Source: Desulfobacterales bacterium (GTDB lineage: Bacteria > Desulfobacterota > Desulfobacteria > Desulfobacterales > Desulfosalsimonadaceae). From it: a stretch of DNA of 64,000 bases. The stretch's first letter is position 1. Each line of letters starts with the position of its first letter. The notes beneath the pieces are model-generated. The model worked only from the letters and a program-made list of their open reading frames with translations, did not search any database and was not told the origin of the DNA. The stretch covers positions 388,929 through 452,928 of the forward strand of contig CAXXNU010000019.1 in NCBI GenBank assembly GCA_963675805.2, given 5' to 3'. The position numbers and the translations under genes were made by a program. This document shows positions 10,123 through 60,306 of this stretch, in pieces.

Positions 10123-13100
10123 ATGACATTACGGAAAAGGGGAGCCTTAAATACAATAAATCAGCTTTGCGCATCTGCTTTTGTTGTATTTTTTCTTATC
10201 AGCCTTCTCGGGGCCGTCGGGTGCAGTGATAGCGGCGGCGGCGGTAATAAATCAAGCTATCACCTGACAGGCTATGACGGCTACCAAAACAAAGCAGGAA
10301 ACAGCGGTTTAGAATTTTATTCTGAATTCCCCTGGTTTGTGAACCTGACATTTCAGGTTCAGGATGAAGATCAATGGGGTATTTCTGGGTTAACGGAAAA
10401 TGATTTTGTCCTGATAGACGATGGTGTGGAGGTATCAAAAGACGCATCTGAATTGAATGTCCGCAAACGCGGCACACTTCCGGCTGATTATTCTTATACG
10501 TTAAAGACGGTTTTGTTTCTGGACAACTCCCCAAGTGAAGAAGCCGGTCTTGATAAAATTAAGGAAGCAGCGCAGGTTATTATCGATAACCTGGATGAAA
10601 AAAAGCAGCAATTAGTCGCTATTATGGCGTTTGATGAAAATGGCAATCCAAAAATTTTTCAGGATTTTTCAGATGATCCCACCGAGTTGCAGAAAATTCT
10701 GGCCTTCGGAGATACGGCTGGGTCTATCCAACCCTCCTTTGGCACCACCAATTTCTATGGTGCCGTAATAGAGGGATTATCGCTTTGGGATGATGCGCTT
10801 TCTCCGGGGGAAACTGATTTCCAGCAAGGCGTTATGGTTGCAATCACTGATGGAAAAGACACCTCCAATCTGTTTGATGTTGACGATGCGATTGCGAAAA
10901 GAAAATTTAAGCAAGTCATTACGGTTGCCGTAGGTTCAGATGTTTCTTCAAGCATTTCCGAGGACCTTCAGAAATTAGGCAATGCCGGATATTATCCGGT
11001 ACCGAACCCGAACCAGCAAGCGGATGAACAGGAAGGGAAGAAACCGCAGGATGAAAATTTGTGCGAATGGATGCTGGTTATTCAAAGCCGGATGATTGCC
11101 TATGCGGATTCTTTTTATTGGTTGCAATACCGCAGTGATGCCACCAGTAAAGATGCAAATTCAAGTCATGCAGTAGCCTTGGAAATAAATAATAATAATA
11201 AGGATGCCACGGACGCCCGTATCTCCGGAACATATTCCAGCGATCATTTTTTCTCCGGAGACCCGAGCATTTATTTTGATGCGTCGACATCCGACCCAGA
11301 CGGCATTACGGAAAAACCAATTATGCTCGAACGGGGCCAGGGGGCCGGCGAGGTGGCGGAAACCATTTCCGCGCTTACGTATAAGCAGACCGGCGCCCGT
11401 CCTTCAGAATATGAATGGACCTCCGGTGATACCAGCATTGTAACTGTTCTGGCGGATGCTGATGACAGTTCCAGAGCTACTATTACCGTTGTCAGCCCGG
11501 GGGATGTAACCCTGACAGTTAAAGATATGGTAAACAATATTAGTCAGACCCTGGCTGTCAACGTTAAGGTCCGGGAAGAATCTTTTGAGATGATCCGCCA
11601 CGTGGTCACGTCAGCGCCGCCCTGGTTTGCGGACGCCACTTTTCAGGTCCGGAAGACGGAAAGCGAAAACAACCAGTGGGAATGGGTGACCGACCTGGCC
11701 CGGGAAGACATGACGGTCCTGGAAAACGGCGAAAAGATCGATATGGAAAATTCGGAACTTCATCTGAGAAAAAGAGACAATATCCCTTCTTCTTATTCCT
11801 ATACATTGAAAACTGTTTTGCTAATTGATAATTCCCCCAGCTCCCGGGCGGAAAACAATTTGGAGCTGATCAAACAGGCGGCCAAAGCATTTGCCAAACG
11901 GGCACTGATTAATGACCCGAATGACCGTAGCGACCTTGGGCCTTTGCTGGATGCAAACAATGAAACGCCGCAGCAGGAAATTGCTGTGGTGTCTTATGAT
12001 GAGGATGGGGAAACCATCCTGGTCCGTGATTTTACCACGGACCTTGATACAGTGACTGAGGCCATCGACGACATTTCCCGTGGGTTTGGCCCCATTGATT
12101 TTTATGATGGCATGTTAACCTCTTTGGATTTATGGCAAAACGAACATTTCCCGTATAACGTGGATGAAGACTTTGTGCAAGGCATGGTGATCGTATTGTC
12201 CGACGGATGGCAGTCTGTGGAAGGGTTTTATGACCGGCAGTCAGTGCTGGATGCAATCGGCTCGAAGCAAGTTGTCTGTGTCAGCGTTGGCAACGATTTG
12301 GTGTCCGGCAATAGCGACGATCTGATTGCCTTTGGCAATGCGGGATTCTATTCTGTGCCCGATCCTGGTCAGACAACCAAGATTAAGGTTGTTTTTGATA
12401 ATGGCGTGGGGGTCAATGATGTTACATATACCGCCTTGGAAAGAACGCTGATGAAAATCCAGGATGAAGCGGCATACCCGTATGCTAACAGTTTTTACTG
12501 GCTCAATTATACGAGCAAACTGGATCGGGCGTCGACTTGCTCCCTTGAAGAATTCATGGTTATCACCATCAATAATAACAGCAACACCGGTGCCGGCAGA
12601 AATGTTTCCGGCAGATTTGAAAGTTGCTATTATTTCGAGGGCATTGACAACAAAATTTATGTGAATCATACAACCACCAATCCCGGAGGAATTACGGGAA
12701 GTATTGAATTGCAATATGTGACAATGGATAATCTATTTTTGTCAGATCCTATGTATCCCTTGAAAGCCATCACCTATGACGATGATGGTTTCAGAAACAC
12801 GCCGGCATATGAATGGACGATTACCAGTCCTTTTGTAAGGGTAACACCGGTTCCGGGAAGCCGCTATAATTCCGAGGCGGTTATGAGCCTGCCGGCAGTT
12901 AAGCAGGAGGGAAATGCCACATTGAGAGTTGACGATATTGGCAATGGATCTCCGCCGTTTACGCTGAATGTCGGTGTTGTTGAAAAAACCATTCCAACCC
13001 CGCTGGCATATTATCTTTTCAATGGTGATTTAACCGATGGCAGCGGAAACGGATTTGATTTAGAAGAACAGTTCGGGTCACCTGTATTAACAGAAGATAG

Positions 13101-13644
13101 GTGTAACGAACAGGATAAAGCATATTCATTTAGCGGAACGTCCGGACGGTTTGGATCTAAAGCATTTACTTATAGTGAAAATGGGGCTTTTGATGAAATA
13201 ACCATATGCGCATGGGTGAGATCCGATTCAAACGAAACCCAGACAATCGTAACCCTGGAAAGAGAATCTTATTGGGCGCTGGATTTATTTGATAGCGGTC
13301 AGTTGAGATGGATCACCACTGATTCGGATGATAAAACAACTATTTTAACAGTGCCGGGCAGCTACAATGACAACCAGTGGCACTTTATCTGCGCCTGGTT
13401 TAAAGCAGGAAGCGGAGCTGCGGATAAAAAAATCTATGTAGACGGTCAGCTCATTGGCTCTCAAAACGGACATGACGGAAAAAGTCTTGGAAACGGTAAT
13501 TCCAGAATTCTTTTAATCGGCGATAACCATATCGGAAATCCGAATTATTGGTTCAAAGGGGATATGGATGATATCATGATTTTTGACCGGGCATTAACCG
13601 AAGATCAAATAACAACATTAAGTAATCTTCAGTGCATCGAGTAA
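10123..13644 (+). CDS. Large exported lipoprotein: two vWA-containing modules + C-terminal LamG/concanavalin-A-like lectin domain
   Basis: Lipobox LLGAVGC. Two MIDAS DxSxS motifs sit in near-identical contexts (YSYTLKTVLFLDNSPS; YSYTLKTVLLIDNSPS) about 436 aa apart. The C-terminus (YYLFNGDLTDGSGNG...WHFICAWF...IYVDGQL...GDMDDIMIFDRALTEDQI) is typical of Laminin_G_3 domains. Confidence 0.7.
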   Translation: MTLRKRGALNTINQLCASAFVVFFLISLLGAVGCSDSGGGGNKSSYHLTGYDGYQNKAGNSGLEFYSEFPWFVNLTFQVQDEDQWGISGLTENDFVLIDDGVEVSKDASELNVRKRGTLPADYSYTLKTVLFLDNSPSEEAGLDKIKEAAQVIIDNLDEKKQQLVAIMAFDENGNPKIFQDFSDDPTELQKILAFGDTAGSIQPSFGTTNFYGAVIEGLSLWDDALSPGETDFQQGVMVAITDGKDTSNLFDVDDAIAKRKFKQVITVAVGSDVSSSISEDLQKLGNAGYYPVPNPNQQADEQEGKKPQDENLCEWMLVIQSRMIAYADSFYWLQYRSDATSKDANSSHAVALEINNNNKDATDARISGTYSSDHFFSGDPSIYFDASTSDPDGITEKPIMLERGQGAGEVAETISALTYKQTGARPSEYEWTSGDTSIVTVLADADDSSRATITVVSPGDVTLTVKDMVNNISQTLAVNVKVREESFEMIRHVVTSAPPWFADATFQVRKTESENNQWEWVTDLAREDMTVLENGEKIDMENSELHLRKRDNIPSSYSYTLKTVLLIDNSPSSRAENNLELIKQAAKAFAKRALINDPNDRSDLGPLLDANNETPQQEIAVVSYDEDGETILVRDFTTDLDTVTEAIDDISRGFGPIDFYDGMLTSLDLWQNEHFPYNVDEDFVQGMVIVLSDGWQSVEGFYDRQSVLDAIGSKQVVCVSVGNDLVSGNSDDLIAFGNAGFYSVPDPGQTTKIKVVFDNGVGVNDVTYTALERTLMKIQDEAAYPYANSFYWLNYTSKLDRASTCSLEEFMVITINNNSNTGAGRNVSGRFESCYYFEGIDNKIYVNHTTTNPGGITGSIELQYVTMDNLFLSDPMYPLKAITYDDDGFRNTPAYEWTITSPFVRVTPVPGSRYNSEAVMSLPAVKQEGNATLRVDDIGNGSPPFTLNVGVVEKTIPTPLAYYLFNGDLTDGSGNGFDLEEQFGSPVLTEDRCNEQDKAYSFSGTSGRFGSKAFTYSENGAFDEITICAWVRSDSNETQTIVTLERESYWALDLFDSGQLRWITTDSDDKTTILTVPGSYNDNQWHFICAWFKAGSGAADKKIYVDGQLIGSQNGHDGKSLGNGNSRILLIGDNHIGNPNYWFKGDMDDIMIFDRALTEDQITTLSNLQCIE

Positions 13645-31608: not shown

Positions 31609-33231
31609 GTGTTTAATCTCATTTCTCGCTTTAATAGAACTATTTACGTGTTCAATATATTATTATTGTTAATTATTATAATATCACAGCCGGCTTGTAA
31701 AATGTTGGGGGTACAAGATAAGTATCCTTTGATAACAGCCGCACAAACCGGTGATATCATCAAAGCAGAAGAATCCCTGAAAAAAAACGCAGATATAAAT
31801 TACGTGAATGAAAACGGCGAATTCGCCCTGCTGCAAGCTTCGGCAAGTGGTAATCTGGAAATGGTGCAATTGTTGATTGGTAATGGTGCCGATGTAAATC
31901 TGTCAAACCAGTTGGGTATGACAGCCCTGATGGCAGCGGCTTCGGGTGACAATGATGCGCTGATCAGTTATCTAATTGAAAGCGGCGCTGACCTGACTTT
32001 AAACAATAATAAAGGCTTTACTGCACTTTATTTTGCGATTAATGGGGAGAATAAAAGTGCAGTCCAATTATTGATTAGTCGCGGTGCGTCTGTAAACGAT
32101 TCAGGCATTTATGGCAATTCACCGCTTTTTCTTGCAGTACAAAAGGGAAACAAAGATATCGCAGACCTCCTTATTGAAAATGGCGCCGATCTCAATAGAA
32201 AGGATTCCTTTGAAAATACGGTATTGAATGTGGCTGCAAACACTGCAAATTATGACCTGGTGAAGCGACTTGTTGAAAGCGGGGCGGATATACATATTTC
32301 AAATAAAATTGGCGAAAATGGATTTTTATTATCTGCCGGAGCTGAACATAAAACAATTGTCAATAATATTTATGAGCGTGTTCGTAAGGCAGCTCCCCGA
32401 GCACCTGTTGAAAATTTTACAAGTGAGGCTTTGCCGGAAAAATATGATTTTTTCATTATATTACAGATATTGGAAGCTATCAAACCGGGACATAGTACCA
32501 AAAACGAAATGAAACTTTTTTTTGAGGCACTCGATAAAAGTGCATTGGCGATTGATATCCCTGAGGACAGATTTCATTCTATTGTCGATCAAATAAACAA
32601 AGATTATCTCGCAATTGTTAATTTGTTTCTGCAAAATGGCGAGGATGTGAATATCCGAGATAATGAATACCAATCCGCAATAATGAAAATTTGTAAACAG
32701 CACAAAGGACTATCCTTTGTTTTTGAAGATAAATTAATTACTTTGGAACCTGAAATTAAAAAGAGGTTTAAAAAAGCATGCAATATTGCGAAAAGCATTC
32801 ACATTCAGATAATACAATTATTGATAGATAGCGGTGCGGATGTCAACATGCAGGATAAAAACGGTCAGACACCATTAATGCTGGCTTGTTCAAATGGGCA
32901 TTTTGAATATGCCAAAGCTTTGGTTGCTGAAGGTGCTGATATCAATCACGCTAGTATAGAAGGATGGACACCGTTAATTAATGCTGCTTCTGCTGAGGCT
33001 ATGGAAATATCACAAATGCTGATTGCCAATGGTGCCGATGTGAACGCGAAGAATAATTTTGGTGAAACAGCGCTTTTAAAATCGGTTTACCGGAACAATA
33101 TTTCGCTGGTGAGTCTTCTGCTAAAAAACGGCGCCAATGTCCATATTGCGAATTCACTAGGAGATTCTCCCCTAAAGGTCGCTGAAAAAAAAGGGTATTT
33201 AGAAATTATGAATATGTTGAAATCATATTGA
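31609..33231 (+). CDS. Exported/membrane-anchored ankyrin-repeat protein
   Basis: GTG start, 5 nt after AGGAGGG. N-terminal hydrophobic anchor with a possible lipobox (SQPAC). There are about 6-7 ANK repeats (GMTALMAAASGDNDALISYLIESGADL...), then a non-ANK insert of about 140 aa, then 4 more ANK repeats (GQTPLMLACSNGHFEYAKALVAEGADI...). Confidence 0.75.
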   Translation: MFNLISRFNRTIYVFNILLLLIIIISQPACKMLGVQDKYPLITAAQTGDIIKAEESLKKNADINYVNENGEFALLQASASGNLEMVQLLIGNGADVNLSNQLGMTALMAAASGDNDALISYLIESGADLTLNNNKGFTALYFAINGENKSAVQLLISRGASVNDSGIYGNSPLFLAVQKGNKDIADLLIENGADLNRKDSFENTVLNVAANTANYDLVKRLVESGADIHISNKIGENGFLLSAGAEHKTIVNNIYERVRKAAPRAPVENFTSEALPEKYDFFIILQILEAIKPGHSTKNEMKLFFEALDKSALAIDIPEDRFHSIVDQINKDYLAIVNLFLQNGEDVNIRDNEYQSAIMKICKQHKGLSFVFEDKLITLEPEIKKRFKKACNIAKSIHIQIIQLLIDSGADVNMQDKNGQTPLMLACSNGHFEYAKALVAEGADINHASIEGWTPLINAASAEAMEISQMLIANGADVNAKNNFGETALLKSVYRNNISLVSLLLKNGANVHIANSLGDSPLKVAEKKGYLEIMNMLKSY

Positions 33232-52406: not shown

Positions 52407-53740
52407 AGTACAACCCTGATATCCATGACATTCGTACCGGTGGGCCCGGTCATTAAAAGATCCCCGGTTTTTTTGAAAAAGTGATAGCTGTCATTATTCG
52501 CGAGAAATTTATCCGGGTTCAGTCCAATTTTTCGAGCCTTTGCAATGGTGGATGTATCCACCACCGCGCCGGCGGCATCTGTGGGCCCGTCTGTGCCGTC
52601 CGTCCCCCCGCTTAAAATGACCATGCGGTTTTCGCCATGCATATCAAGGGCGGCAATAAGGGCAAACTCCTGATTTCGGCCGCCTTTACCATTTCCTTTC
52701 AGAACAATAGTGGTTTCGCCGCCGGACAATATACAGGCAGGTGCCGGAACAGGGCGGCCGAAGCGCTGAATGTTTTTTGCGGCATCCGTATGCAGGTGGG
52801 CAGCGGCCCGGGTGTCCCCTTCCAGATTTTCGTCTAAAATAAAGGGATTGTAACCCAGTTCGCAGGCTTTCTGATAGGCCGCGGCAAGTGCTTCTTTATT
52901 AGATGCGGCGATAGCATTGAGTGTGTTTTTAAAGGCAGGATGATTAAGTGGCGGCGTATCGGGCGTGATACCGGCGGCGCCCTCTTTCAGGTGCTGCAAA
53001 ACGGAAACCGGAATTTGGTTCTGGATGCGGTAGTTGTCAATAATTGTCAGACAATCAGAAAATGTCGTGGGGTCTCCCGTGGTGGGGCCGGAAGCGATAA
53101 CATCCAGCCGGTTGCCGACCACATCCGAAATGATCAGGGTGACCAGGGTGGCAGGGGATGCTTTTACGGCCAGATGGCCGCCTTTTATAGCGGATATGTG
53201 TTTTCTCAAGGTGTTGATTTCATCAATGGAGGCCCCGCAATGGAGAAGCGTTTGTAACGTTTTCTGCTTGTCCTGAAGGGTGATGCCCGGTGCCGGAAGG
53301 GGCAGTAGGGCAGATCCCCCACCGGAAATCAGGCAGATGATCAGATCGTTTTCCGTTGCCGCTTCTGCAATGTCCAGCATCTGAGTGGCGGCCTTCTCTC
53401 CGTTTGCATCGGGAATGGGGTGGCCGGCTTCAATCAGCCGGATTTTTTCAAGGGGCGCGGTATGACCGTATTTTACCGAGATGATTCCCGAGGTAATGGT
53501 TTTGCCCAGGATTTTTTCCATGGCAGCGGCCATGTGTGCAGATGCTTTGCCGGCGCCGATGATAAAGACGCGGTTAAACTGGTTTAAATGAAAAGTTTTC
53601 TGGTCAATGGAAAGGATGTGATTTTCATACCGGCATAATTTTTTAATTGCCTCAAACGCATTAACAGCGCTGAGCGCGCTGTTAAAAAGGCTTGCGGCAT
53701 GGCGCCGCATGGTATTTAATAAGATCTGATTTTCAGGCAT
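52394..53740 (-). CDS. Glycerate 2-kinase, MOFRL family (TtuD/GckA-like)
   Basis: FIIGAGKASAHMAAAME, LISGGGSALL, ILSGGETTIVLKGNGKGGRNQEFALIAAL, GTDGTDGPTDAAGA. Confidence 0.8.
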   Translation of the reverse strand: MPENQILLNTMRRHAASLFNSALSAVNAFEAIKKLCRYENHILSIDQKTFHLNQFNRVFIIGAGKASAHMAAAMEKILGKTITSGIISVKYGHTAPLEKIRLIEAGHPIPDANGEKAATQMLDIAEAATENDLIICLISGGGSALLPLPAPGITLQDKQKTLQTLLHCGASIDEINTLRKHISAIKGGHLAVKASPATLVTLIISDVVGNRLDVIASGPTTGDPTTFSDCLTIIDNYRIQNQIPVSVLQHLKEGAAGITPDTPPLNHPAFKNTLNAIAASNKEALAAAYQKACELGYNPFILDENLEGDTRAAAHLHTDAAKNIQRFGRPVPAPACILSGGETTIVLKGNGKGGRNQEFALIAALDMHGENRMVILSGGTDGTDGPTDAAGAVVDTSTIAKARKIGLNPDKFLANNDSYHFFKKTGDLLMTGPTGTNVMDIRVVLVGR

Positions 53741-53776
53741 GAAACTGTCGCATGGCAGGCGAGAAAGATATAGCGA

Positions 53777-53977
53777 TTATTTTTTGGCTTCCTTCTCCGG
53801 TGTGGCTGCGTCTGAGGGTTTGACTTCTGTTTTTTTAGCCGCCGGCTTTTTGGGTTTTGGCTTTTTCTTTTTTAGGCAGACCTTGTCTTTCCGGACAAAC
53901 GCGCAGAGCTTGGGATTATAATATTCCTTGCAGTTCAGAGGGTTATATAGGGGGCATTCCGGATGTTTTTTTGACAT
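53777..53977 (-). CDS. Small Cys4, Lys-rich hypothetical protein
   Basis: 66 aa: MSKKHPECPLYNPLNCKEYYNPKLCAFVRKDKVCLKKKKPKPKKP... AGGA lies about 10 nt upstream of the ATG. It is co-directional with, and 36 nt upstream of, the glycerate kinase gene. The opposite-strand ORF 53739..53921 looks like an antisense artefact. Confidence 0.45.
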   Translation of the reverse strand: MSKKHPECPLYNPLNCKEYYNPKLCAFVRKDKVCLKKKKPKPKKPAAKKTEVKPSDAATPEKEAKK

Positions 53978-54084
53978 GAATTTGAATCCTTTTTATTGGC
54001 AATATTTAAATTTTCATTTTATGTATCATAAAATACTCAATTTAACAAGCGACATCTATAGGTTGGGTTTAGTAAACCCTGACG

Positions 54085-54176
54085 GCTTTGCAAAAAGTCC
54101 AAATTTTTTGTTGCGCTGCATCCCTCGCTGCTTCAACGTTTCCCAAGTACTTATCATTGCTCGTTATTTGCGCGCC
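54085..54176. repeat. Dispersed intergenic repeat, copy B
   Basis: GCTTTGCAAAAAGTCCAAATTTTTTGTTGCGCTGCATCCCTCGCTGCTTCA... aligns with copy A at 39651. The 3' part is more diverged. Confidence 0.65.
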
Positions 54177-54353
54177 TCGCCAATTTTATGAGATTGGTGG
54201 CGCTTTTTCCTTTGCCCTCGAAATCTTATTTTTGACGATTTTATTCATCCCTATGTCCTAAATTCAGGCGGGACCGGGCAAATCTTTTTGACAATTGGCG
54301 CCTGGAATGTCATAAAAATCTCCATACATTGCATAATTATTCAACATCAGGGG

Positions 54354-56633
54354 ATGGTTGAGGAGCTGAAACCGATAATGAACGTTTACGAGGATCTGAA
54401 AACCGAACTTTTAACCATTAACCGGGACGTGGCCGGGCTTTTGGACCGGATCAAAGCCATGCCCGAAACATCCGAGCATTCATTCGCGGACTGGGAAAAT
54501 ATATGCCGCACCATTGAAAACCAGCTGGCCGGCGAATTGTTGCGGGTGGCGGTGATTGGTACCATCAAATCCGGCAAATCAACCCTCATTAATTCGCTCT
54601 TTTCCGGGGATTACCTGAAAAGGGGCGCCGGCGTGGTGACATCCATGGTCACCCGGGCCCGCCGCGGCGATCAGCTCAAGGCCACCCTTTATTTTAAATC
54701 CTGGGACCAGGTGAACGCGGACATCCGGCGTTCTCTGGTGTTGTTCCCGTCGCTGGAGTGGCGCACCCGAAAGGAACCTTTTGATATCCGGCGGCAATCA
54801 GACAGGGAAGAACTGGCTCAGGCCCTGGGGTCTCTGGAGGCCAAACAGCTGTTGAGCAATGACACTCGAAACCTGAACAGCCTGTATCTTTCCTCTTATT
54901 TGACGGGGTATGACCGGGTCGAAAAATTCTTGTCATCCGACAACCTGACCCGGGAGTTTACCGGTGCGGATTTCGCTGCCCATCGCGATTTTTCCGGCAA
55001 CGAAGTGCTGGCATTTTATCTGAAGGATATTTGTATTGAAATAGATTCCGGAGACATTGATCCGACGATTGAAATTGCGGACTGCCAGGGCAGTGACTCC
55101 CCGAATCCGCTTCATATGGCCATGATTCAGGATTATTTGCTGCAGGCCAATCTTTTAATTTATGTGATCAGCAGCCGCACGGGGATTCGCCAGGCAGACA
55201 TCAACTTTATGAACATGATTAAAAAAATGGGTATCATTGATCACATGATCTTTGTGGTGAATTGTGACCTGTCTGAACATGAGTCCCGCGATGATTTGCT
55301 CCGGCTGGTGGGGAAAGTCACGGATGATCTGGCCATCATTAAAAAGGCTCCCGACGTATATGCGTATTCAGCCCTGTTCAGCCTGTTTGCGGCAAATGCG
55401 GACACGCTGACGCCCAGGGACGGACAGCGCCTGGCCCAGTGGCAGGCCGAAGAAAAAATTGTCAACTTTGTAAAAGAACAGGAAAAAGCGTTTCATGACA
55501 ATTTGCAGAAAATCGTCACCAGCCGGCGGTATTCCTTGCTGTTCCAGAATCATTTTGAGCGCCTCAGAATGATCGTTTCCGGCCTTATTCAATGGGTTCG
55601 GGTGAATCAGGACCTGCTCGCCGGCAGTGCGGCGGAAGCGGCCAAAATGTTGAAAAAGATCAAATCTCAGCAAAAGAAAACCGATCGTGTCAAATCCATG
55701 GTGAAAAGCACCCTGGATGGGGCAGTGCAGCAGATGAAGCGTGATATTCGGATGGATGTGGACCGGTTTTTTGATCATCGCTCCGGGGATGTGGTTCCCG
55801 CGTTGGTAGAATTTGTCAAAGGTTACAACCTTTCATTTGCCCAGTATCAGGACCGCATCGTAGCGGAGGGCTTTTCCAACACCCTGTATCTGGTTTTTCA
55901 GGATCTCAAGCTCGCCATTGATACTCATATGGCGGAGCATATTAATCCGCAGATATTCAATTTTGTAAAAAATGAAGAGCTCAAAATCCGGGAATATTTC
56001 GAAACTATTACCGGTCCCTATGAGGTCATGGTCAACGACGCGCTGTTGGAATACAATGGTGCCATGGCGCGCATGGGCCTCGGCGAAGCTGCCGGATATG
56101 GGAAATCCGTGGCGGAAATAGACATGAAAAGCGTCAAACAGGAAAAGCATCTGGAGTTTCCAACGGCATCCGCCACCATGAATTACAGCGCCGCCATTAA
56201 AGCAGAGGCCATTCTGCGCCTGGGGGTCTATAATGTGATCCGGCAGTTTCGAAGGCTTGTTCGTCGCCCGGCCGACGACAGTACCGCCAATAATGCGGCC
56301 GCGTTAAATGACGCAGTGAAGCGGATGAAAAAGGAGACTCGGGAAAGTCTGGTGTTTCATTTTAAGAATTACCGGGAAAATTTAAAGTTTCAGTACATTT
56401 TTCGGCTGGTGGACGCGGTGTCGGAAAGTATTTGTGATGCCATGATGGCCCGGTTTCATGATTATACCCAGGACCTTTCCCGATTAACTGGTTCCATGGT
56501 TAAAAATCAGGTGGATAAGGACAAAATAGGCGATGATTTGAAAATTTTGTCGGAAAATGCCGATGCAGTGTCTGAGCGCATGCGTCAGTTTCGCGACCGG
56601 CTGAGTGAAACTGCGACAGCCAACCCGGCATAG
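54354..56633 (+). CDS. Bacterial dynamin-like GTPase
   Basis: G1 VIGTIKSGKSTLINSL, G2-region GVVTSMVT, G3 IADCQGSDS, G4-like VVNCDL, followed by about 500 aa of helical stalk. The start is ambiguous (TTG 54288 / ATG 54354 / ATG 54378, the last preceded by GAGGAG). Confidence 0.75.
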   Translation: MVEELKPIMNVYEDLKTELLTINRDVAGLLDRIKAMPETSEHSFADWENICRTIENQLAGELLRVAVIGTIKSGKSTLINSLFSGDYLKRGAGVVTSMVTRARRGDQLKATLYFKSWDQVNADIRRSLVLFPSLEWRTRKEPFDIRRQSDREELAQALGSLEAKQLLSNDTRNLNSLYLSSYLTGYDRVEKFLSSDNLTREFTGADFAAHRDFSGNEVLAFYLKDICIEIDSGDIDPTIEIADCQGSDSPNPLHMAMIQDYLLQANLLIYVISSRTGIRQADINFMNMIKKMGIIDHMIFVVNCDLSEHESRDDLLRLVGKVTDDLAIIKKAPDVYAYSALFSLFAANADTLTPRDGQRLAQWQAEEKIVNFVKEQEKAFHDNLQKIVTSRRYSLLFQNHFERLRMIVSGLIQWVRVNQDLLAGSAAEAAKMLKKIKSQQKKTDRVKSMVKSTLDGAVQQMKRDIRMDVDRFFDHRSGDVVPALVEFVKGYNLSFAQYQDRIVAEGFSNTLYLVFQDLKLAIDTHMAEHINPQIFNFVKNEELKIREYFETITGPYEVMVNDALLEYNGAMARMGLGEAAGYGKSVAEIDMKSVKQEKHLEFPTASATMNYSAAIKAEAILRLGVYNVIRQFRRLVRRPADDSTANNAAALNDAVKRMKKETRESLVFHFKNYRENLKFQYIFRLVDAVSESICDAMMARFHDYTQDLSRLTGSMVKNQVDKDKIGDDLKILSENADAVSERMRQFRDRLSETATANPA

Positions 56634-56662
56634 ATCTTTTTTGAATTCAGGATGGAGGGAAG

Positions 56663-57442
56663 ATGACGAGAAACAGTAAACGTATTGTTGCCATTGCCAA
56701 TGAAAAAGGCGGTGTCGGAAAGACGGCAACCGTTGTTAACCTGGGCGCTGCATTGTCTCTGGAGGGACAGAAGGTGCTTGTCGTTGATATGGACCCCCAG
56801 CATAACACCACAAGCGGACTGGGGGTGGCGGCTGCGGACGACAGCATCAGTGTCTATGACCTCATTACGAATGGGACGGAATACAAAACACGCGACGCCA
56901 TCTGCCGCACCCGCTGGGAAAAACTGGATCTCCTGCCGTCTCACATTGATCTTTCCGGCGCGGAAATCGAACTGGTGGATGAAGAAGGACGGGAAAACAA
57001 GCTGAAGAACGCCATCGGTCAGGTCGTGGATGACTATGACGTCATTATCATGGATACGCCACCCAGTTTGTCGCTGCTGACCATTAACGTATTTGCCGCT
57101 GCCTCGGAACTGCTGGTGCCCTGCCAGACCCATCCCTATGCGTTCAAGGCCCTTGAAGATCTTTTTGATACCATCGACGATATCCGGGAAGAGATCAACC
57201 CTGATATCCGGGTCGCAGGTATTGTGCCGACGTTTTTTGACCAGCGCACCAAAATCAGCCGGGATATTTTGGAACGGCTGCAATCTGATGAACGCTACAA
57301 GGACAAGTTGTTTAAAACGGCGATCCGCGTCAATACCACCATCACGGACAGTTCTGATCAGGGCAAACCCGTTGTTTTTTACCGGCGGAGCAGTTATGGC
57401 GCCCAGGATTACATGGCCCTGGCCCGGGAGTTTCTGGAGTAG
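56663..57442 (+). CDS. ParA/Soj-family deviant Walker ATPase (no parB adjacent)
   Basis: IVAIANEKGGVGKTATVVNLGAAL, VLVVDMDPQ, IIMDTPPS. It starts 29 nt after the dynamin-like gene and has a GGAGGG RBS. Confidence 0.85.
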   Translation: MTRNSKRIVAIANEKGGVGKTATVVNLGAALSLEGQKVLVVDMDPQHNTTSGLGVAAADDSISVYDLITNGTEYKTRDAICRTRWEKLDLLPSHIDLSGAEIELVDEEGRENKLKNAIGQVVDDYDVIIMDTPPSLSLLTINVFAAASELLVPCQTHPYAFKALEDLFDTIDDIREEINPDIRVAGIVPTFFDQRTKISRDILERLQSDERYKDKLFKTAIRVNTTITDSSDQGKPVVFYRRSSYGAQDYMALAREFLE

Positions 57443-57601
57443 GTGGTTTTGATTTTTCCGCCGGTTCGCGCCTGGCCGGGACGATTGCCTTTCCATTAAT
57501 TGTGGCAACACAAAAAATTGGTATTTTCACTTTCCCGCCGCATTTAACAGATGCCAACAGCTATAGACTATGGACTGGCGGGTATTTTTAGGGTCATGCA
57601 A

Positions 57602-57619
57602 TGACTGATAAATCAGTCA
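57602..57619. promoter_or_regulatory. Perfect 18-bp palindrome, candidate TetR operator
   Basis: TGACTGAT-AA-ATCAGTCA, 22 nt upstream of the TetR-family gene ATG. Confidence 0.5.
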
Positions 57620-57641
57620 ACATTTTCAGCGGAGGATTGTC

Positions 57642-58253
57642 ATGGGGGAACCCTCTACCAAACACGCACTGATTGCGTCTGCCATCCGGATGTTTCACAA
57701 AAACGGGTTTCAGATGACCCGGGTGTCTGATATTGTTGCCGACGCCGGGGTCGCCCAGGGGACATTTTATAATTATTTCAAGTCCAAGGAAGAGATTTTC
57801 AAAGAAATCTGCTATGATTTCATCGATAAATTGCAGAAAAAATTCATTGAAAGAACCGAGCACATGTTTGACGGGGACACCGCAGATGAGGTGATCGGTA
57901 ATGTCCACCGGGTGGTGCGGGATCTTACCCGAATTTATGAGGACAACTTGAATGTGGCGGAACTCCTGTTTCGGGAGGGCATCGGCAACGGCGGCATTTT
58001 CAAAGAAATTTATGAGGACATGTTTTCCCTGTTTCTGGAACTGATTGAAGAACAGTTAGAAAAAGCGAATTTTCGGGGGCTTATCAAGTTTGAGGATGCC
58101 CGGATCGGTTCTGTTTTTCTGTTTGGTCTGTTTGAGCGGAGTCTTTTGTATTTTATGCTGATTCAGAAGAATACGGATATGGAAAAACTCCAGCAGATCA
58201 TGGTGGATTTTGTTTTAAAAGGCCTGTCTTTCAATTATGCGTTTAAGGCCTGA
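57642..58253 (+). CDS. TetR/AcrR-family transcriptional regulator
   Basis: LIASAIRMFHKNGFQMTRVSDIVADAGVAQGTFYNYFKSKEEIF. Confidence 0.85.
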   Translation: MGEPSTKHALIASAIRMFHKNGFQMTRVSDIVADAGVAQGTFYNYFKSKEEIFKEICYDFIDKLQKKFIERTEHMFDGDTADEVIGNVHRVVRDLTRIYEDNLNVAELLFREGIGNGGIFKEIYEDMFSLFLELIEEQLEKANFRGLIKFEDARIGSVFLFGLFERSLLYFMLIQKNTDMEKLQQIMVDFVLKGLSFNYAFKA

Positions 58254-58284
58254 AACCAAAGCCACGCGCGCTTAATTCTCAAAA

Positions 58285-58332
58285 CAAAAAAACCGGCAAC
58301 GTGCTTTGTGCATCGTGCCGGTTTTTTTGTTT
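58285..58332. terminator. Bidirectional rho-independent terminator
   Basis: A-run, then ACCGGCA(A)CG...CGTGCCGGT stem, then T-run. It lies between the convergent TetR gene and 58348..60306. Confidence 0.7.
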
Positions 58333-58347
58333 TAAATGGCCTGAAGG

Positions 58348-60306
58348 CTAATGTTTTTTTGCCTTGGGCGTTTCATTGGTTTGGTTCGGTGCATTGTCCG
58401 GATCATTATTCGGGTCAGAAGCGGTTTTCGCAGATTCTGCGGCTTGCGATTCTTTTTCCTTTGCAAGGGTTTCTGCTTCAGCTGCTTTTTTTGCTTCTTC
58501 AGCAGCGATCTGCTTTTCTAAAAGATCCCGCTTTTTGTTGACTTCAGCGGTCTTTTGGTCCAAAAGGTCCCGCTGGGAAGTGCCGGTGGCCAGGGTTGCC
58601 GCGCTGTGCAGGTGGGTGAGGGCAGACTCATACCCCTCAATGGTATTTTTGCCGGCGGCCACATCCGCCTTGTATAGGGAGAACAAAAAATCAATGTTGC
58701 TCAGCCGTGTTTTTGCAGCGTTTTTGTGCTGGCGGTCCGGGGCGAAATGAATGGCCTTGTAAAGGTTTGTTTTAATGGCTTCAAAATCCGGCTGGCCTTT
58801 TTTTTCAGAAAGGGCCTCAGCCTTTTGGATATAAAACTGATAGGCCGGGACCAATGCTTCTTTTTTGGCGTAAACGTCTTTTACAGGTTCTTCAACGGAC
58901 GCGCCAGGGACATGCATTACCAGTTTTTTGCCGGTGGGTGAAAATTTTCCCTGCCAGATGTCAATGCCGCCGTCTGCCTGTTTCAGATAGTAGTTGTTCG
59001 TGTTCATGGCACTGGCAATGATCAGCAGCGCGAATAGTCCGCCCACGAGAGCGACTAATATTTTGACGGCGTTGTTCATAGGGGGCTCTGTCGGGCCCTG
59101 ATCAGCGGGAATTGATGGCGGTGCCGGTGGTTTTGCCGCTTTTTCTTCAGCTTCTTTCTCTGCTTTGGCTTTTGCCTCGGCCTCGGCTTTTGCTTTTTCG
59201 GCCGCCTCTTTTTCAGCTTTTGCCTTGGCTTCCGCTTCTGCCTTAGCCTTTTCGGCTTTCGCCTTTGCTTCAGCCTCTGCCTTGGCCTTCTCCTGAGCCT
59301 CTTTTTCTGCTTTGGCTTTTGCCTCGGCCTCGGCTTTTGCTTTTTCCGCGGCTTCCTTTTCAGCCTTTGCCTTTTCGGCTGCTTCCTTCTCCGCTTTCGC
59401 CTTTGCTTCAGCTTCTGCTTTGGCTTTCTCCTGAGCCTCTTTTTCTGCTTTGGCTTTTGCCTCGGCCTCGGCCTTTGCTTTTTCTGCGGCCTCTTTTTCA
59501 GCTTTTGCCTTGGCTTCCGCTTCGGCCTTGGCCTTTTCGGCTGCTTCCTTCTCTGTTTTCGCCTTTGCCTCAGCTTCTGCTTTGGCTTTCTCTTGAGCTT
59601 CTTTTTCTGCTTTGGCTTTTGCCTCGGCTTCGGCCTTTGCTATTTCTGCGGCCTCTTTTTCTGCCCGGGCCTTGCCTGCTGCCTCAATGACCTTCATATC
59701 AAAGGTTCTGGCAATCAACCCCCGAATACGGTCGGCTTCTGCTTTGTCTTTGCTCTCAAAGGCCGGGGGAGCGGAAAAGCCTTTTTCAAACGAATCATCC
59801 ACCGCCGGCACATATAATTTTTTGGGCTGCCAGGAATCAAATTGAAGATTGATCAGTTCTCTTACGGAAAGTGTTTTTTTGGGTTTGGCGGCTGGTTTTT
59901 CTTTTGCCGGTGCTTTTGGCTTTGCTTTTGGGGCTGTTTTTTTTTTTGGCTTTTCTGCTTTTGCCTTGTCCGGCACAGTTAGGTCGAATTGCCGATTTAA
60001 AAGGTCCCGCAGGGCGGTTGCTTTTTCTTTGTCTTTCTCATCAATGGCCGGCGGCGCTGAAAAGCCACTTAAAAGGTCACTGTCCGGGGTTGCTTTGAAA
60101 AGTTTTTTAGGGGCCCAGGCATCAAATTTCCTGTTCAGGATGGATTTCAAGGTTGGTTTTTTGGGCGCCGGTTTTTTTTTGGCCGTTGGCTTTTTTGTTT
60201 CTTTTTTAGGGGCAGCGGCTTTGGTTTCCGTTTTCTTGGCGGTTGTCTTTTTTTTCGCGGTTGCTTTCTTTTTGGTAGTGGATTTGGTCAGGCTTTTTTT
60301 TCCCAT
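58348..60306 (-). CDS. Repetitive single-pass membrane protein: H1-like Lys-rich N-tail, duplicated about 50-aa module, KAEAEAKAKAEKEA repeat coiled coil, TM helix, C-terminal domain
   Basis: 652 aa. The N-terminus is MGKKSLTKSTTKKKATAKKK.... Two FD(A/S)W(A/Q)PKKL(F/Y)...GFSAPPA modules are present. About 9 units of an 18-aa K/A/E repeat follow. The TM helix is AVKILVALVGGLFALLIIASAM. Confidence 0.7.
   Translation of the reverse strand: MGKKSLTKSTTKKKATAKKKTTAKKTETKAAAPKKETKKPTAKKKPAPKKPTLKSILNRKFDAWAPKKLFKATPDSDLLSGFSAPPAIDEKDKEKATALRDLLNRQFDLTVPDKAKAEKPKKKTAPKAKPKAPAKEKPAAKPKKTLSVRELINLQFDSWQPKKLYVPAVDDSFEKGFSAPPAFESKDKAEADRIRGLIARTFDMKVIEAAGKARAEKEAAEIAKAEAEAKAKAEKEAQEKAKAEAEAKAKTEKEAAEKAKAEAEAKAKAEKEAAEKAKAEAEAKAKAEKEAQEKAKAEAEAKAKAEKEAAEKAKAEKEAAEKAKAEAEAKAKAEKEAQEKAKAEAEAKAKAEKAKAEAEAKAKAEKEAAEKAKAEAEAKAKAEKEAEEKAAKPPAPPSIPADQGPTEPPMNNAVKILVALVGGLFALLIIASAMNTNNYYLKQADGGIDIWQGKFSPTGKKLVMHVPGASVEEPVKDVYAKKEALVPAYQFYIQKAEALSEKKGQPDFEAIKTNLYKAIHFAPDRQHKNAAKTRLSNIDFLFSLYKADVAAGKNTIEGYESALTHLHSAATLATGTSQRDLLDQKTAEVNKKRDLLEKQIAAEEAKKAAEAETLAKEKESQAAESAKTASDPNNDPDNAPNQTNETPKAKKH
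59139..59670 (-). repeat. In-frame tandem repeat, 54-nt unit (about 9 copies, two truncated)
   Basis: The marker TGCTTTGGCTTTTGCCTCGG recurs at 59161, 59308, 59446 and 59608. The offsets (147, 138, 162 nt) equal multiples of 54 plus truncated 39- and 30-nt units. The repeat encodes KAKAEAEAKAKAEKEA(A/Q)E. Confidence 0.85.

Follow-up and report, generated by a model that had tools for sequence, protein, structure and literature searches.

In the order Desulfobacterales, the genes for a BDLP/mitofusin-type dynamin-like GTPase (DLP) and for an orphan ATPase of the ParA family form a conserved two-gene operon. In the best reading of this arrangement, which we hold tentatively and regard as just short of probable, the ParA is an accessory protein for the spatial control of the DLP, or of whatever process the DLP serves. 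The operon was characterised in a window of 64,000 nucleotides (the whole stretch of DNA that was analysed) from a Desulfobacterales genome, in which its features are located as follows.

54378..56633, + strand: DLP, a BDLP/mitofusin-type dynamin-like GTPase of 751 aa (Dynamin_N match, homologue starts and predicted fold)
54558..54584, + strand: G1/P-loop motif GTIKSGKST, DLP residues 61-69 (sequence and alignment)
55080..55091, + strand: G3 motif DCQG, DLP residues 235-238 (D235, C236, Q237 and G238 invariant in 37 sequences)
55260..55268, + strand: G4 motif NCD, DLP residues 295-297 (N295 and D297 invariant in 37 sequences)
56073..56258, + strand: tip of the DLP trunk; its loop (residues 566-604) is variable and modelled with low confidence, and the helix after it (about 605-634) is basic, amphipathic and conserved
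56634..56662, + strand: DLP-ParA spacer of 29 nt, containing the ribosome-binding site GGAGGG; the scan lists no terminator-like site here
56663..57442, + strand: DLP-associated orphan ParA, a Soj-derived deviant Walker A ATPase of 259 aa (AAA_31, CbiA)
56705..56725, + strand: deviant Walker A motif KGGVGKT, ParA residues 15-21 (K15 and K20 in 45/45 orthologues)
57323..57343, + strand: I-R-V-N-T-T-I, ParA residues 221-227, replacing I-P-R-x-V-R-L of Soj (subfamily alignment)

The arrangement given in the first-pass annotation, with ParA following DLP after 29 nt, was confirmed, and one metatranscriptome contig (X1 record 7, 56572-57148) bridges the junction of the two genes. The neighbours of DLP in the window are ParA, a TetR regulator, a glycerate-kinase-like gene and a small ORF, and the pair is surrounded by coaBC, udg, xerC-hslVU, argBFGH, folK and pgsA-like genes. 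No mobile or defence genes adjoin the pair in the window; its setting is one of vertically inherited housekeeping genes and not a defence island. The profile matches of both proteins are strong and full-length homologues number in the hundreds, well past anything expected by chance.

The dynamin-like GTPase

The annotation had described a dynamin-type protein of 760-780 aa with a G domain containing GTIKSGKST, DCQG and NCD; the domain and its motifs stand, and the size is corrected to 751 aa. The long ORF (54288..56633, + strand) opens with a TTG start at 54288 and encodes 781 aa, with another in-frame ATG at 54354. The alignment with homologues begins no earlier than residue 28-31 of this ORF, and their own N-termini correspond to the equivalent methionine; the start of DLP is therefore likely to be at 54378. 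The 781-aa ORF matches Pfam Dynamin_N with 49.9 bits (cut-off 27) at residues 87-324, so that 238 residues are spread over 165 model positions, and almost all listed homologues carry a precomputed PF00350 label. Within the P-loop, G61, K64, S65, G66, K67 and S68 are invariant among 37 aligned sequences, as are T88 and T92, the candidates for G2. The G domain occupies approximately residues 55-340, and the helical neck and trunk make up the part of the protein after it.

The AlphaFold2 model of DLP (pLDDT 77.8, pTM 0.67) consists of a G domain and a long helical stalk, in agreement with the stalk proposed from the sequence. Its best match in a Foldseek search is 2J69 (E 3.4e-16, TM 0.52/0.57), which, like 2J68, is BDLP of Nostoc punctiforme, the prototype bacterial dynamin-like protein. 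Structural alignment of the model with BDLP gave Z 20.7 and an rmsd of 4.8 A over 602 of 671 residues; IniA was aligned over 528 residues (Z 20.0) and mini-mitofusin-1 over about 350 residues (Z 22-25). A profile search of solved chains matched little beyond the P-loop region. The G-domain assignment holds in profile as well as in fold searches, and DLP is a soluble dynamin-like GTPase of the BDLP/mitofusin type.

No transmembrane segment was found in DLP, the best 19-residue hydropathy being merely 1.21 and located within the G domain. The helix at the trunk tip, whose sequence includes ...ILRLGVYNVIRQFRRLVRRP (consensus MRLGFY......KKL.KKP), has a hydrophobic moment of 0.85 and a net charge of +4 to +6; the model places a helix at residues 605-627, with pLDDT of 54-65 in the tip region. 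This basic amphipathic helix is a candidate equivalent of the membrane-binding 'paddle'. At the other end of the protein, L7, K8, L11, L12 and I14 of the N-terminal helix (modelled as residues 2-27) are conserved, K8 almost invariantly, in lineages that lack ParA as well as in those that have it.

A distinct subfamily of orphan ParA

The second gene encodes, as the annotation had it, a Soj/ParA ATPase with the deviant Walker motif KGGVGKT (AAA_31 1e-57, CbiA 9e-23). All catalytic residues of the subfamily are intact (K15, K20, D44 of Walker A' and D131 of Walker B, each in 45/45 orthologues), and it has signature residues of its own: E14 and R222 (45/45 each) and R241 (42/45). Members are 51-66% identical to each other and approximately 37-43% identical to Soj. 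The best solved relative is 8RAY, the ParA of M. xanthus (190 bits), ahead of the Soj structures of T. thermophilus (1WCV/2BEK) and H. pylori (6IUB) at 145-148 bits. The score against NCBIfam ParA_partition was 103.7 bits (cut-off 180). An assignment to MinD was rejected, TIGR01968 reaching 52.7 bits (cut-off 212.9) and TIGR01969 74.9 bits (cut-off 201.75). No C-terminal amphipathic membrane-targeting helix was seen in the protein, whose C-terminus (...DYMALAREFLE) is Soj-like.

The genome has a parA-parB pair on another contig (C1, 1133340-1134560), and the window ParA is 43% identical to the Soj of that same genome. There is no ParB_N match on the contig of the window (C19); the three matches of the genome are on contigs C1, C7 and C13. 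The window ParA is therefore a second, orphan copy, and both the lack of parB and the orphan status noted in the first pass are upheld.

The residues that bind non-specific DNA are, according to passages of two papers, K199, K227, K230 and K247 in the H. pylori protein and R189, K201, R215 and R218 in that of B. subtilis (PMC6393308, PMC12462528). Across the subfamily, this patch has lost two of its four basic residues, both within the motif at 221-227, where the two DNA-binding arginines or lysines of Soj are gone and the subfamily-specific R222 is present instead. Position 223, equivalent to K227/R215, is basic in 0/45 orthologues and in 6/6 Soj proteins of the order; position 226, equivalent to K230/R218, is Thr in 40/45 and basic in 1/45, compared with Arg in 4/6 Soj proteins of the order. 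Position 226 also corresponds to R238 of M. xanthus ParA. In the relevant passages, the R238E variant of the latter is described as being without non-specific DNA binding (PMC12462528), and a part in DNA binding is reported for R218 of B. subtilis Soj (PMC6393308). Only one position of the patch is conserved, R195 (the equivalent of B. subtilis R189), which is present in 43/45 orthologues; the K201 equivalent, Q in the window ParA, is K or R in 14/18 aligned subfamily sequences (window included). The new conserved arginines R222 and R241, situated within these regions of the sequence, may make up for the loss.

The pocket that accepts a partner peptide was mapped through a HMMER alignment to 8RAY, with V116, L150, L152, L155, L187 and L192 at the dimer edge of the M. 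xanthus protein as reference. Five of the six positions are hydrophobic in the window ParA (I102, L136, L138, I141, I178); the L187 equivalent is D in this protein and A in most orthologues.

Conservation and loss of the pairing

ParA lies directly downstream of DLP on the same strand at 17 of 29 other loci and at 43 of 64 assessable named loci. Cultivated carriers among the named records include Desulfosarcina, Desulfosudis and Desulfocicer. In a sample of 151 Desulfobacterales genomes, with an orthologue threshold of E <= 1e-68 and DLP and ParA coordinates compared by eye, 50 of the 57 other genomes that carry the ParA subfamily (88%) have it directly downstream of DLP. The paired loci are same-strand in 44/44 cases with a median ORF gap of approximately 50 nt. 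The arrangement spans more than 40 genera of Desulfobacterales, and the pair is conserved well outside the genome in which it was noticed. Other syntenic neighbours of DLP are kept less often than this link (YcaO-TPR at 38 loci, glycerate kinase at 30/80), and the neighbourhood comparison of loci revealed no alternative cargo or adaptor gene conserved beside ParA.

DLP was detected in 120 of the 151 genomes, as a single full-length copy in nearly all; additional matches correspond to fragments or to one gene in several pieces. It is present in 53 of 58 genomes with the ParA orthologue and in 67 of 93 without it, a co-occurrence that is a mere tendency since kin are not independent. In the DLP tree, ParA-bearing loci fall on both sides of the midpoint root, with about six label changes of which three are forced, a pattern that fits an old pairing with repeated loss. 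In the favoured reading, the gene of this dedicated ParA subfamily originated beside that of DLP. No description of a DLP and ParA pairing was found in literature searches, and it seems to be undescribed, as the annotation had supposed.

The pairing has been lost repeatedly, from either side. The 67 DLP-bearing genomes without a ParA orthologue are illustrated by a genome of the same genus (G134) that is collinear with the window, and in which the ParA stretch has no match between DLP and the TetR gene. Conversely, five genomes that are 94-100% complete have an intact ParA, with all catalytic and signature residues, and no DLP detectable by protein or family-profile search, one of these loci being at a contig edge. 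In two further genomes, ParA and DLP are far apart. Displaced ParA genes are found in housekeeping settings: behind dnaE in genome G034, and elsewhere between an algH-like gene and ycaO or hisB, or between lpxB and dtd. None of 25 DLP loci outside the clade (DLP identity <=34%) has a ParA. As each gene is also found without the other, DLP and ParA are candidate partners only.

At the sequence level, DLP has no detectable co-adaptation to ParA and no change that tracks its loss: neither its N- nor its C-termini contain a difference or motif that separates ParA-bearing from ParA-less lineages, and 0 of 219 columns conserved in ParA-bearing lineages are lost in at least four of the six ParA-less clades. 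The distance (mirror-tree) correlation of DLP with ParA (r 0.95-0.97) is no higher than that of DLP with YcaO (0.94) and therefore indicates shared vertical descent only. The whole neighbourhood is syntenic, and adjacency alone is thus weaker evidence here than elsewhere.

Possible roles of the pair

In bacteria, the question of 'where' is generally answered by ParA/MinD ATPases, and it is mostly from gene neighbourhoods that the cargos of these ATPases became known. We take the role of a spatial regulator from what is seen with further orphan ParA/MinD ATPases, whose genes lie beside those of the cargo on which they act. DLP would most likely bind membranes through its basic amphipathic trunk tip and, on GTP-driven self-assembly, would remodel them by tethering, fusion or repair. 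The ATP-bound ParA dimer would sit on a cellular surface, either the nucleoid or another polyanionic matrix, and, possibly through contact with DLP, would position, or spatially restrict, DLP assemblies or the process that they serve. The two proteins would then constitute the 'remodelling plus positioning' module that the annotation envisaged, a functional unit that we infer. That a ParA-family ATPase has been recruited as a spatial regulator dedicated to a soluble BDLP-type dynamin, which would make a membrane-remodelling GTPase the first such ParA 'cargo', is in our judgement rather unlikely; in that reading, the rebuilt patch (IPRxVRL to IRxNTTI) could mean that patterning takes place on a matrix other than bulk DNA.

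The main alternative, which we consider almost as likely, is that DLP and ParA are co-transcribed and functionally independent. DLP would be a housekeeping membrane-maintenance GTPase. ParA would be an additional Soj-like ATPase with a separate task, handling a different cargo or serving chromosomal ParB as a back-up or regulator, and would have its place in the DLP transcription unit simply by inheritance within a strongly syntenic region. Independence would account for DLP without ParA in 67 of 151 genomes, for intact ParA without detectable DLP in five, for displaced ParA genes that are all in housekeeping settings (such as that behind dnaE in G034), for the absence of a co-adaptation signal in DLP, and for a mirror-tree correlation equal to that of the unrelated neighbour YcaO. 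The pocket used by ParB is largely kept (5/6 positions hydrophobic), and a ParB is encoded in the genome. However, independence is harder to reconcile with 50 of 57 ParA orthologues being directly downstream of DLP across more than 40 genera, on the same strand and with short gaps, a link more conserved than that with every other neighbour. The higher occurrence of DLP in genomes with ParA (53/58, versus 67/93 without), although only a tendency among non-independent kin, and the lack of a conserved alternative cargo or adaptor gene beside ParA also speak for a connection.

Because the DNA-binding patch is rebuilt, ParA may instead work away from the nucleoid, as a nucleotide-dependent switch directly on DLP or at the membrane that, for example, gates DLP oligomerisation. 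The replacement of basic residues at positions 223 (basic in 0/45) and 226 (Thr in 40/45), which are basic in 6/6 and Arg in 4/6 Soj proteins of the order, points in this direction, the R218/R238 equivalent being linked to DNA binding in passages of PMC12462528 and PMC6393308. We nevertheless consider such a switch improbable, since R195 is kept in 43/45 orthologues, R222 and R241 may restore the basic patch, no amphipathic C-terminal membrane helix was seen in ParA, and MinD models score far below their cut-offs. The annotation had also raised the possibility of a defence-type module, and an anti-phage or other defence function of the LeoA/Eleos type would agree with a partial PADLOC match of DLP to LeoA (42.5 bits, residues 246-463; LeoBC 21.5 bits on the same protein) and with the protection against phage that some bacterial dynamins confer, according to part of PMC8844932. 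This proposal did not hold up and is very improbable: in 120 of 151 genomes DLP occurs as a single copy at a site of conserved synteny, the DLP tree agrees with vertical descent, the gene is not flanked by a second or third dynamin gene, the surroundings of the pair are housekeeping genes with neither mobile nor defence genes adjoining, and the PADLOC matches of ParA are at the P-loop level only.

If spatial control by ParA is the correct reading and the regulator is dedicated, membrane fusion, fission or repair would be placed with respect to the nucleoid or to the cell cycle. A ParA subfamily that is co-operonic with a single BDLP-type dynamin in more than 40 genera provides a testable hypothesis for the spatial control of a bacterial dynamin, and the relatives with precise loss of one gene or the other are a natural experiment. 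If the two proteins are independent, the pair is a warning that strong operon conservation in a syntenic clade alone proves no functional module.

Comparison with known systems

With LeoABC/Eleos, DLP shares a dynamin-type G domain and the partial PADLOC match. There are no LeoB or LeoC genes, an absence recorded in the first pass also, and the three-gene unit was rejected as a description of a locus with only one dynamin gene. A patchy, island-like distribution, as of defence genes, is likewise at odds with the occurrence of DLP in 120 of 151 genomes with conserved synteny; DLP is core, syntenic, vertically inherited and outside any defence island.

Closest to DLP among known systems are BDLP and also IniA, SynDLP, Campylobacter DLP1/2 and the mitofusins. 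BDLP and the predicted structure of DLP have in common an N-terminal helix, a dynamin G domain and what is modelled as a closed, folded-back helical neck and trunk, and G1-G4 are conserved in DLP, although sequence identity to BDLP-type structures is only 12-14%. DLP differs in approximately 70 extra residues within the G domain, as counted from the Dynamin_N match, in a tip formed by a basic amphipathic helix and not by an obviously hydrophobic paddle or transmembrane hairpin, and in being encoded singly (neither as a DLP pair nor as a fusion) with ParA next to it.

The window ParA has the length and fold family of chromosomal Soj/ParA proteins of ParABS systems. Unlike them, it is not beside parB, a separate parA-parB pair being present in the genome, and the subfamily has changed Q to E14, QCE(F/Y)Y to QTHPY, IPRxVRL to IRxNTTI and D to R241.

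Orphan ParA/MinD positioning systems include McdA-McdB of carboxysomes, PpfA-TlpT and ParC of chemoreceptor arrays, PomZ-PomXY and MipZ, and genes of this kind (McdA, PpfA, ParC, FlhG) are usually encoded beside the cargo or adaptor. In contrast to these systems, an adaptor that carries a recognisable activating peptide did not emerge from the analysis, a dynamin-like GTPase as cargo was not found in literature searches, two canonical DNA-binding residues are replaced in the window ParA, and the subfamily is often lost and at times kept without its candidate cargo. Shared with them are a Soj-sized deviant Walker A ATPase without parB whose gene is co-operonic with that of a candidate cargo other than DNA, conserved catalytic residues, a partner-peptide pocket that is mostly kept, and a place beside that candidate, DLP, which as a matter of adjacency alone is conserved in 50 of 57 genomes and at 43 of 64 loci.

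Gene pair and its locus

The first-pass annotation had reported a dynamin-type GTPase of 760-780 amino acids followed 29 nt later by a Soj/ParA-type ATPase, with no parB in the window. Both open reading frames are present at that spacing, one with a match to Dynamin_N and the other with a KGGVGKT motif, and their contig (C19) has no match to ParB_N; the dynamin-type assignment holds, and the length is corrected to 751 amino acids by the starts of homologues.

54288..56633, + strand: ORF of the dynamin-like GTPase (DLP) as listed, 781 aa, TTG start
54378..56633, + strand: DLP gene as taken here, 751 aa, ATG at 54378
56663..57442, + strand: ORF of the orphan Soj-like ATPase (ParA), 259 aa, 29 nt after DLP

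The start at 54378 was chosen because homologues in 119 other genomes align to the 781-aa frame only from residue 28-31 and have a methionine of their own at that position, in a common N-terminal pattern (M..Y..LK.ELL.IN). The spacer between the genes contains a GGAGGG ribosome-binding site, and a terminator scan listed no terminator-like site within it. Site counts were at chance level (promoter-like, 6 versus 6.0 expected; terminator-like, 7 versus 6.4), so the scan is uninformative about a separate promoter for ParA, and an Rfam scan of 53700-58400 gave no match near any gathering score. Metatranscriptome contigs (four runs of one study, in which gaps carry no meaning) cover both genes at low and patchy levels; one 599-nt contig bridges the junction, covering 62 nt of DLP and 486 nt of ParA, and lends slight support to co-transcription, given that such libraries may contain DNA.

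Upstream, a 66-aa ORF (53777-53977, - strand) without a Pfam match lies between a glycerate-kinase-like gene and DLP, and is kept in a genome of the same genus (tblastx, 77% over 75 aa). The intergenic region before the DLP start also holds a copy (54080-54200) of a repeat some 120 nt long, dispersed over four contigs of this genome (C1, C7, C8, C19) in at least 40 copies of 80-91% identity; it has no match in Rfam and a terminator-like hairpin (54177-54200) at its 3' end. Its first 40-55 nt are matched at the highest depth by contigs of all four RNA libraries; these contigs continue into other sequence and are thus derived from other copies.

The dynamin-like GTPase

DLP scores 49.9 bits against Pfam Dynamin_N (cut-off 27), and its GTIKSGKST P-loop, DCQG and NCD motifs are invariant in an alignment of 37 sequences, which upholds the G-domain assignment made from sequence inspection. 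None of the curated NCBIfam families claims it. A profile search of solved chains matched little beyond the P-loop region, so a fold search was needed. The AlphaFold2 model built from the 37-sequence alignment (mean pLDDT 77.8, pTM 0.67) has an N-terminal helix and a G domain at about 55-340, followed by a set of very long helices (359-464, 499-565, 605-627, 635-697 and 714-747). The best Foldseek match is Nostoc BDLP (2J69; E 3.4e-16, TM 0.52/0.57, 13% identity), which also has the widest cover by VIA-align (Z 20.7, rmsd 4.8 A, 602 of 671 residues aligned). SynDLP, Campylobacter DLP1/2 and mini-mitofusin-1 are among the other Foldseek matches, with IniA ranked after SynDLP; VIA-align gave Z 20.0 over 528 residues for IniA and Z 22-25 over about 350 residues for mini-mitofusin-1.

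No transmembrane segment was found in DLP. Amphipathic character is strongest in a conserved, basic helix (residues ~605-634; net charge +4 to +6, moment 0.85) at the tip of the trunk, preceded by a variable loop of low confidence, at the site that the membrane paddle occupies in BDLP. DLP may bind membrane through this basic tip. This is a compact family: among 1.84 billion representatives it has 317 clusters (50% identity) at E <= 1e-30, with members of 740-760 aa in nearly all of them. The ESM Atlas assigns DLP to a cluster whose 2013 members are mostly Thermodesulfobacteriota, and gives only dynamin clusters of its own as matches. By sequence and predicted fold, DLP is of the BDLP/mitofusin type, within which it forms a new and distant family; it displays every feature testable at those levels. 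A second ORF bearing Dynamin_N is present elsewhere in the same genome (G000:C8:50885-51388; open frame of 515 aa, 63.6 bits).

The orphan ParA

ParA has a deviant Walker A motif (KGGVGKT) and matches AAA_31 (1e-57) and CbiA (9e-23), and scores below the cut-offs of every NCBIfam equivalog for ParA, MinD and BcsQ. Among solved structures it is closest to chromosomal ParA/Soj proteins, namely 8RAY (M. xanthus ParA21-274, 190 bits) and the Soj proteins of T. thermophilus and H. pylori (~145 bits). The genome encodes a canonical parA-parB pair on contig C1, of which the ParA is 43% identical to that of the window. The catalytic residues K15, K20, D44 and D131 are present in 45 of 45 orthologues, and a set of signature residues distinguishes the subfamily from six Soj proteins (chromosomal ParA of ParABS systems) of the same order.

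Table. Signature and DNA-patch positions of the ParA subfamily (45 orthologues). DNA-patch residues are those named in PMC6393308, mapped by HMMER alignments.
Position 14: E in 45/45; Q or L in Soj
Position 157: H or Q; E in Soj
Position 222: R in 45/45; P in Soj
Position 241: R in 42/45; D in Soj
Equivalent of B. subtilis R189: R195, kept in 43/45
Equivalent of H. pylori K227 / T. thermophilus R208: basic in 0/45
Equivalent of H. pylori K230 / B. subtilis R218 / M. xanthus R238: Thr in 40/45, basic in 1/45

According to PMC6393308, B. subtilis R189 and R218 have a role in binding of DNA and the nucleoid, and PMC12462528 describes an M. xanthus ParA-R238E that lacks non-specific DNA binding. 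Since the K227/R208 equivalent is never basic and the K230/R218/R238 equivalent almost never, the canonical DNA-binding patch has, by sequence comparison, been rebuilt in the ParA subfamily; R222 and R241 may make up for the missing charges. In M. xanthus ParA, six hydrophobic residues form the pocket for the ParB peptide (PMC12462528); five of the six positions are still hydrophobic here. A MinD-like protein was considered and rejected because ParA has no C-terminal membrane-targeting helix of the MinD type and scores far under the cut-offs; nor does it fit a ParABS component, having no parB beside it, an equivalog score below cut-off and only two of the four DNA-patch residues. It constitutes a new orphan subfamily derived from Soj.

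Conservation and genomic context

Among 151 genomes of Desulfobacterales (the order sample), DLP is found in 120, with one full-length copy in nearly all (further matches represent fragments or a single gene in pieces). By their source names, the organism and its relatives belong to Desulfobacterales (Desulfobacteraceae, Desulfosalsimonadaceae, Desulfococcaceae, Desulfosarcina, Desulfonema, Desulfosudis and Desulfocicer), and 43 genomes of the phylum sample beyond this order have more distant members (27-33% identity).

The pairing with ParA is conserved outside the genome of origin. ParA (50-63% identical) is directly downstream of DLP at 17 of the 29 best loci from the order sample, and is absent within 6-8 kb (less at contig ends) at the other 12; it is directly downstream in 43 of 64 assessable named loci, and three truncated loci also hold part or all of it. 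The two genes are on the same strand in all 44 paired loci, window included, with a median gap between ORFs of about 50 nt. When ParA was the query, a threshold of E <= 1e-68 split the subfamily (51-66% identity) from Soj (37-43%) and placed it in 58 of the 151 genomes, the window's own included. In 50 of the 57 other carriers, with coordinates matched by eye, it is directly downstream of DLP on the same strand. Thus, 88% of ParA-subfamily genes occupy this position across more than 40 genera, which is above DLP's other conserved neighbours.

The remaining seven carriers are exceptions.

Table. Genomes in which ParA is not directly downstream of DLP.
G034 (L182:3626-7955): ParA (63% identical) 26 nt after dnaE (gene of DNA polymerase III alpha); DLP on another contig without ParA
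G008: truncated ParA copy, far from DLP
G110, G031: algH-like gene, ParA, convergent ycaO; same site, DLP missing
G139: algH-like gene, ParA, hisB, dnaG
G115: lpxB, ParA, dtd
G103: contig end just upstream of ParA

DLP was not found by protein or family-profile search in G110, G031, G139, G115 or G103 (completeness 94-100%). ParA orthologues that are detached from DLP or lack it are full-length and keep all catalytic and signature residues (K for R at 241 in one). In the order sample, 67 genomes have DLP without ParA and five have an intact ParA without DLP. Thus, ParA is not required by DLP and can persist without it.

Gene order around DLP is conserved: a divergent glycerate-2-kinase-like gene is upstream of DLP in 30 of 80 loci, and a convergent YcaO-TPR gene is downstream in 38 loci. 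The latter, a neighbour of DLP or ParA (L100:5829-7571 and 37 further loci), encodes a YcaO cyclodehydratase domain and C-terminal TPR repeats (~575-590 aa); it is absent from the window, and is upstream of DLP on the same strand in the distant locus L167. In other orders, tgt and yajC are frequent upstream neighbours of DLP (Pfam confirms both in four loci, tgt alone in a fifth), in a place where secD-secF usually come next; distant DLPs of 27-33% identity are directly downstream of tgt/yajC on the same strand in loci L159, L166, L169 and L174 (also L168), and dprA comes after DLP in L159 and L162. The setting of DLP is a vertically inherited housekeeping region, not a defence island.

Elsewhere in the window, about 1-35 kb is a polysaccharide-synthesis cluster (glycosyltransferases, methyltransferases, a flippase-type transporter, a sulfotransferase and asparagine synthase) with a core of low GC content (0.31-0.35) at 20-24 kb, followed by coaBC, udg, xerC-hslVU, argB/F/G/H, folK and a pgsA-like gene. 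The cluster also encodes a 1173-aa protein with VWA and Laminin_G_3 domains (10123-13644) and a 540-aa ankyrin-repeat protein (31609-33231). A 652-aa ORF (58348-60306, - strand), located where AT skew is extreme (-0.41 over 58-60 kb), is partly kept in a same-genus genome and has no Pfam match, only a weak, low-complexity hit to a ClfA-type repeat model (21 bits).

History of the pair

In a maximum-likelihood tree of 65 DLPs, of which 44 have ParA and 21 lack it, ParA-bearing loci fall on both sides of the midpoint root. Presence of ParA requires six changes on this tree, at least three of the changes being forced by well-supported branches, and none of 500 label shuffles gave as few. Among DLPs of at most 34% identity, ParA was found in none of 25 loci within flanks of 1.5 kb (22 from other orders, three from divergent families of the same order). 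The simplest reading, which depends on the root, is one origin of the pairing near the base of the DLP clade of more than 40% identity, then repeated loss. G134, a genome of the same genus, aligns collinearly with the window over ~50.0-61.3 kb, has no match to the ParA stretch (~56.6-57.5 kb), and has a TetR match ~240 nt after the DLP match. Across loci, ycaO starts 2-460 nt after DLP where ParA is missing and ~830-4650 nt after it, mostly 830-1570, where ParA is present; by this shift, ParA behaves as a clean presence/absence unit.

Possible cooperation and comparison with known systems

If the two proteins cooperate, ParA would not be an obligate subunit but an accessory spatial regulator. 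Such regulation of DLP, or of the process it serves, is our tentative preference; counted in its favour are the tight same-strand operon, the concentration of ParA genes at one position, the RNA contig across the junction, and the rule that orphan ParA/MinD genes adjoin the gene of their cargo. Counted against it are the genomes with only one of the two genes, and the DLP termini, which are alike with or without ParA, no terminal motif particular to ParA-linked DLPs having been seen. Likewise, 219 columns of DLP are conserved in lineages with ParA, and none of them is lost in at least four of six ParA-less clades. Also counted against it, though in itself uninformative, is the mirror-tree correlation of pairwise distances, which for DLP and the unrelated neighbour YcaO (r 0.94) is as high as for DLP and ParA (0.95-0.97). 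Independent functions of DLP and ParA within a shared transcription unit are rated almost as likely as cooperation. Complex prediction with alignments (DLP residues 1-740 and a ParA monomer) scored 0.00 in both runs, which speaks neither for nor against binding. A variant of the accessory-regulator reading, in which ParA would act as a switch away from the nucleoid, is unlikely.

The first-pass annotation had also offered a defence-type module, and had argued against a canonical Leo/Eleos system. Distribution and the housekeeping context tell against defence, which was rejected on those grounds and is left with a very slight probability; the doubt about Leo/Eleos was well placed, as a LeoABC reading is contradicted both by the missing partner genes and by the distribution. 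The pairing had been called undescribed, and we likewise found no description of it in the literature covered, from which most subscription journals were absent; in a preprint on ParA in immunity (10.64898/2026.10.19.760177), the passages on dynamins cite them only as a parallel. An orphan ParA beside its cargo is an already known pattern, and the Desulfobacterales pair resembles orphan ParA systems in that its ParA adjoins a candidate cargo gene; what sets it apart is that this candidate cargo is a dynamin-like GTPase.
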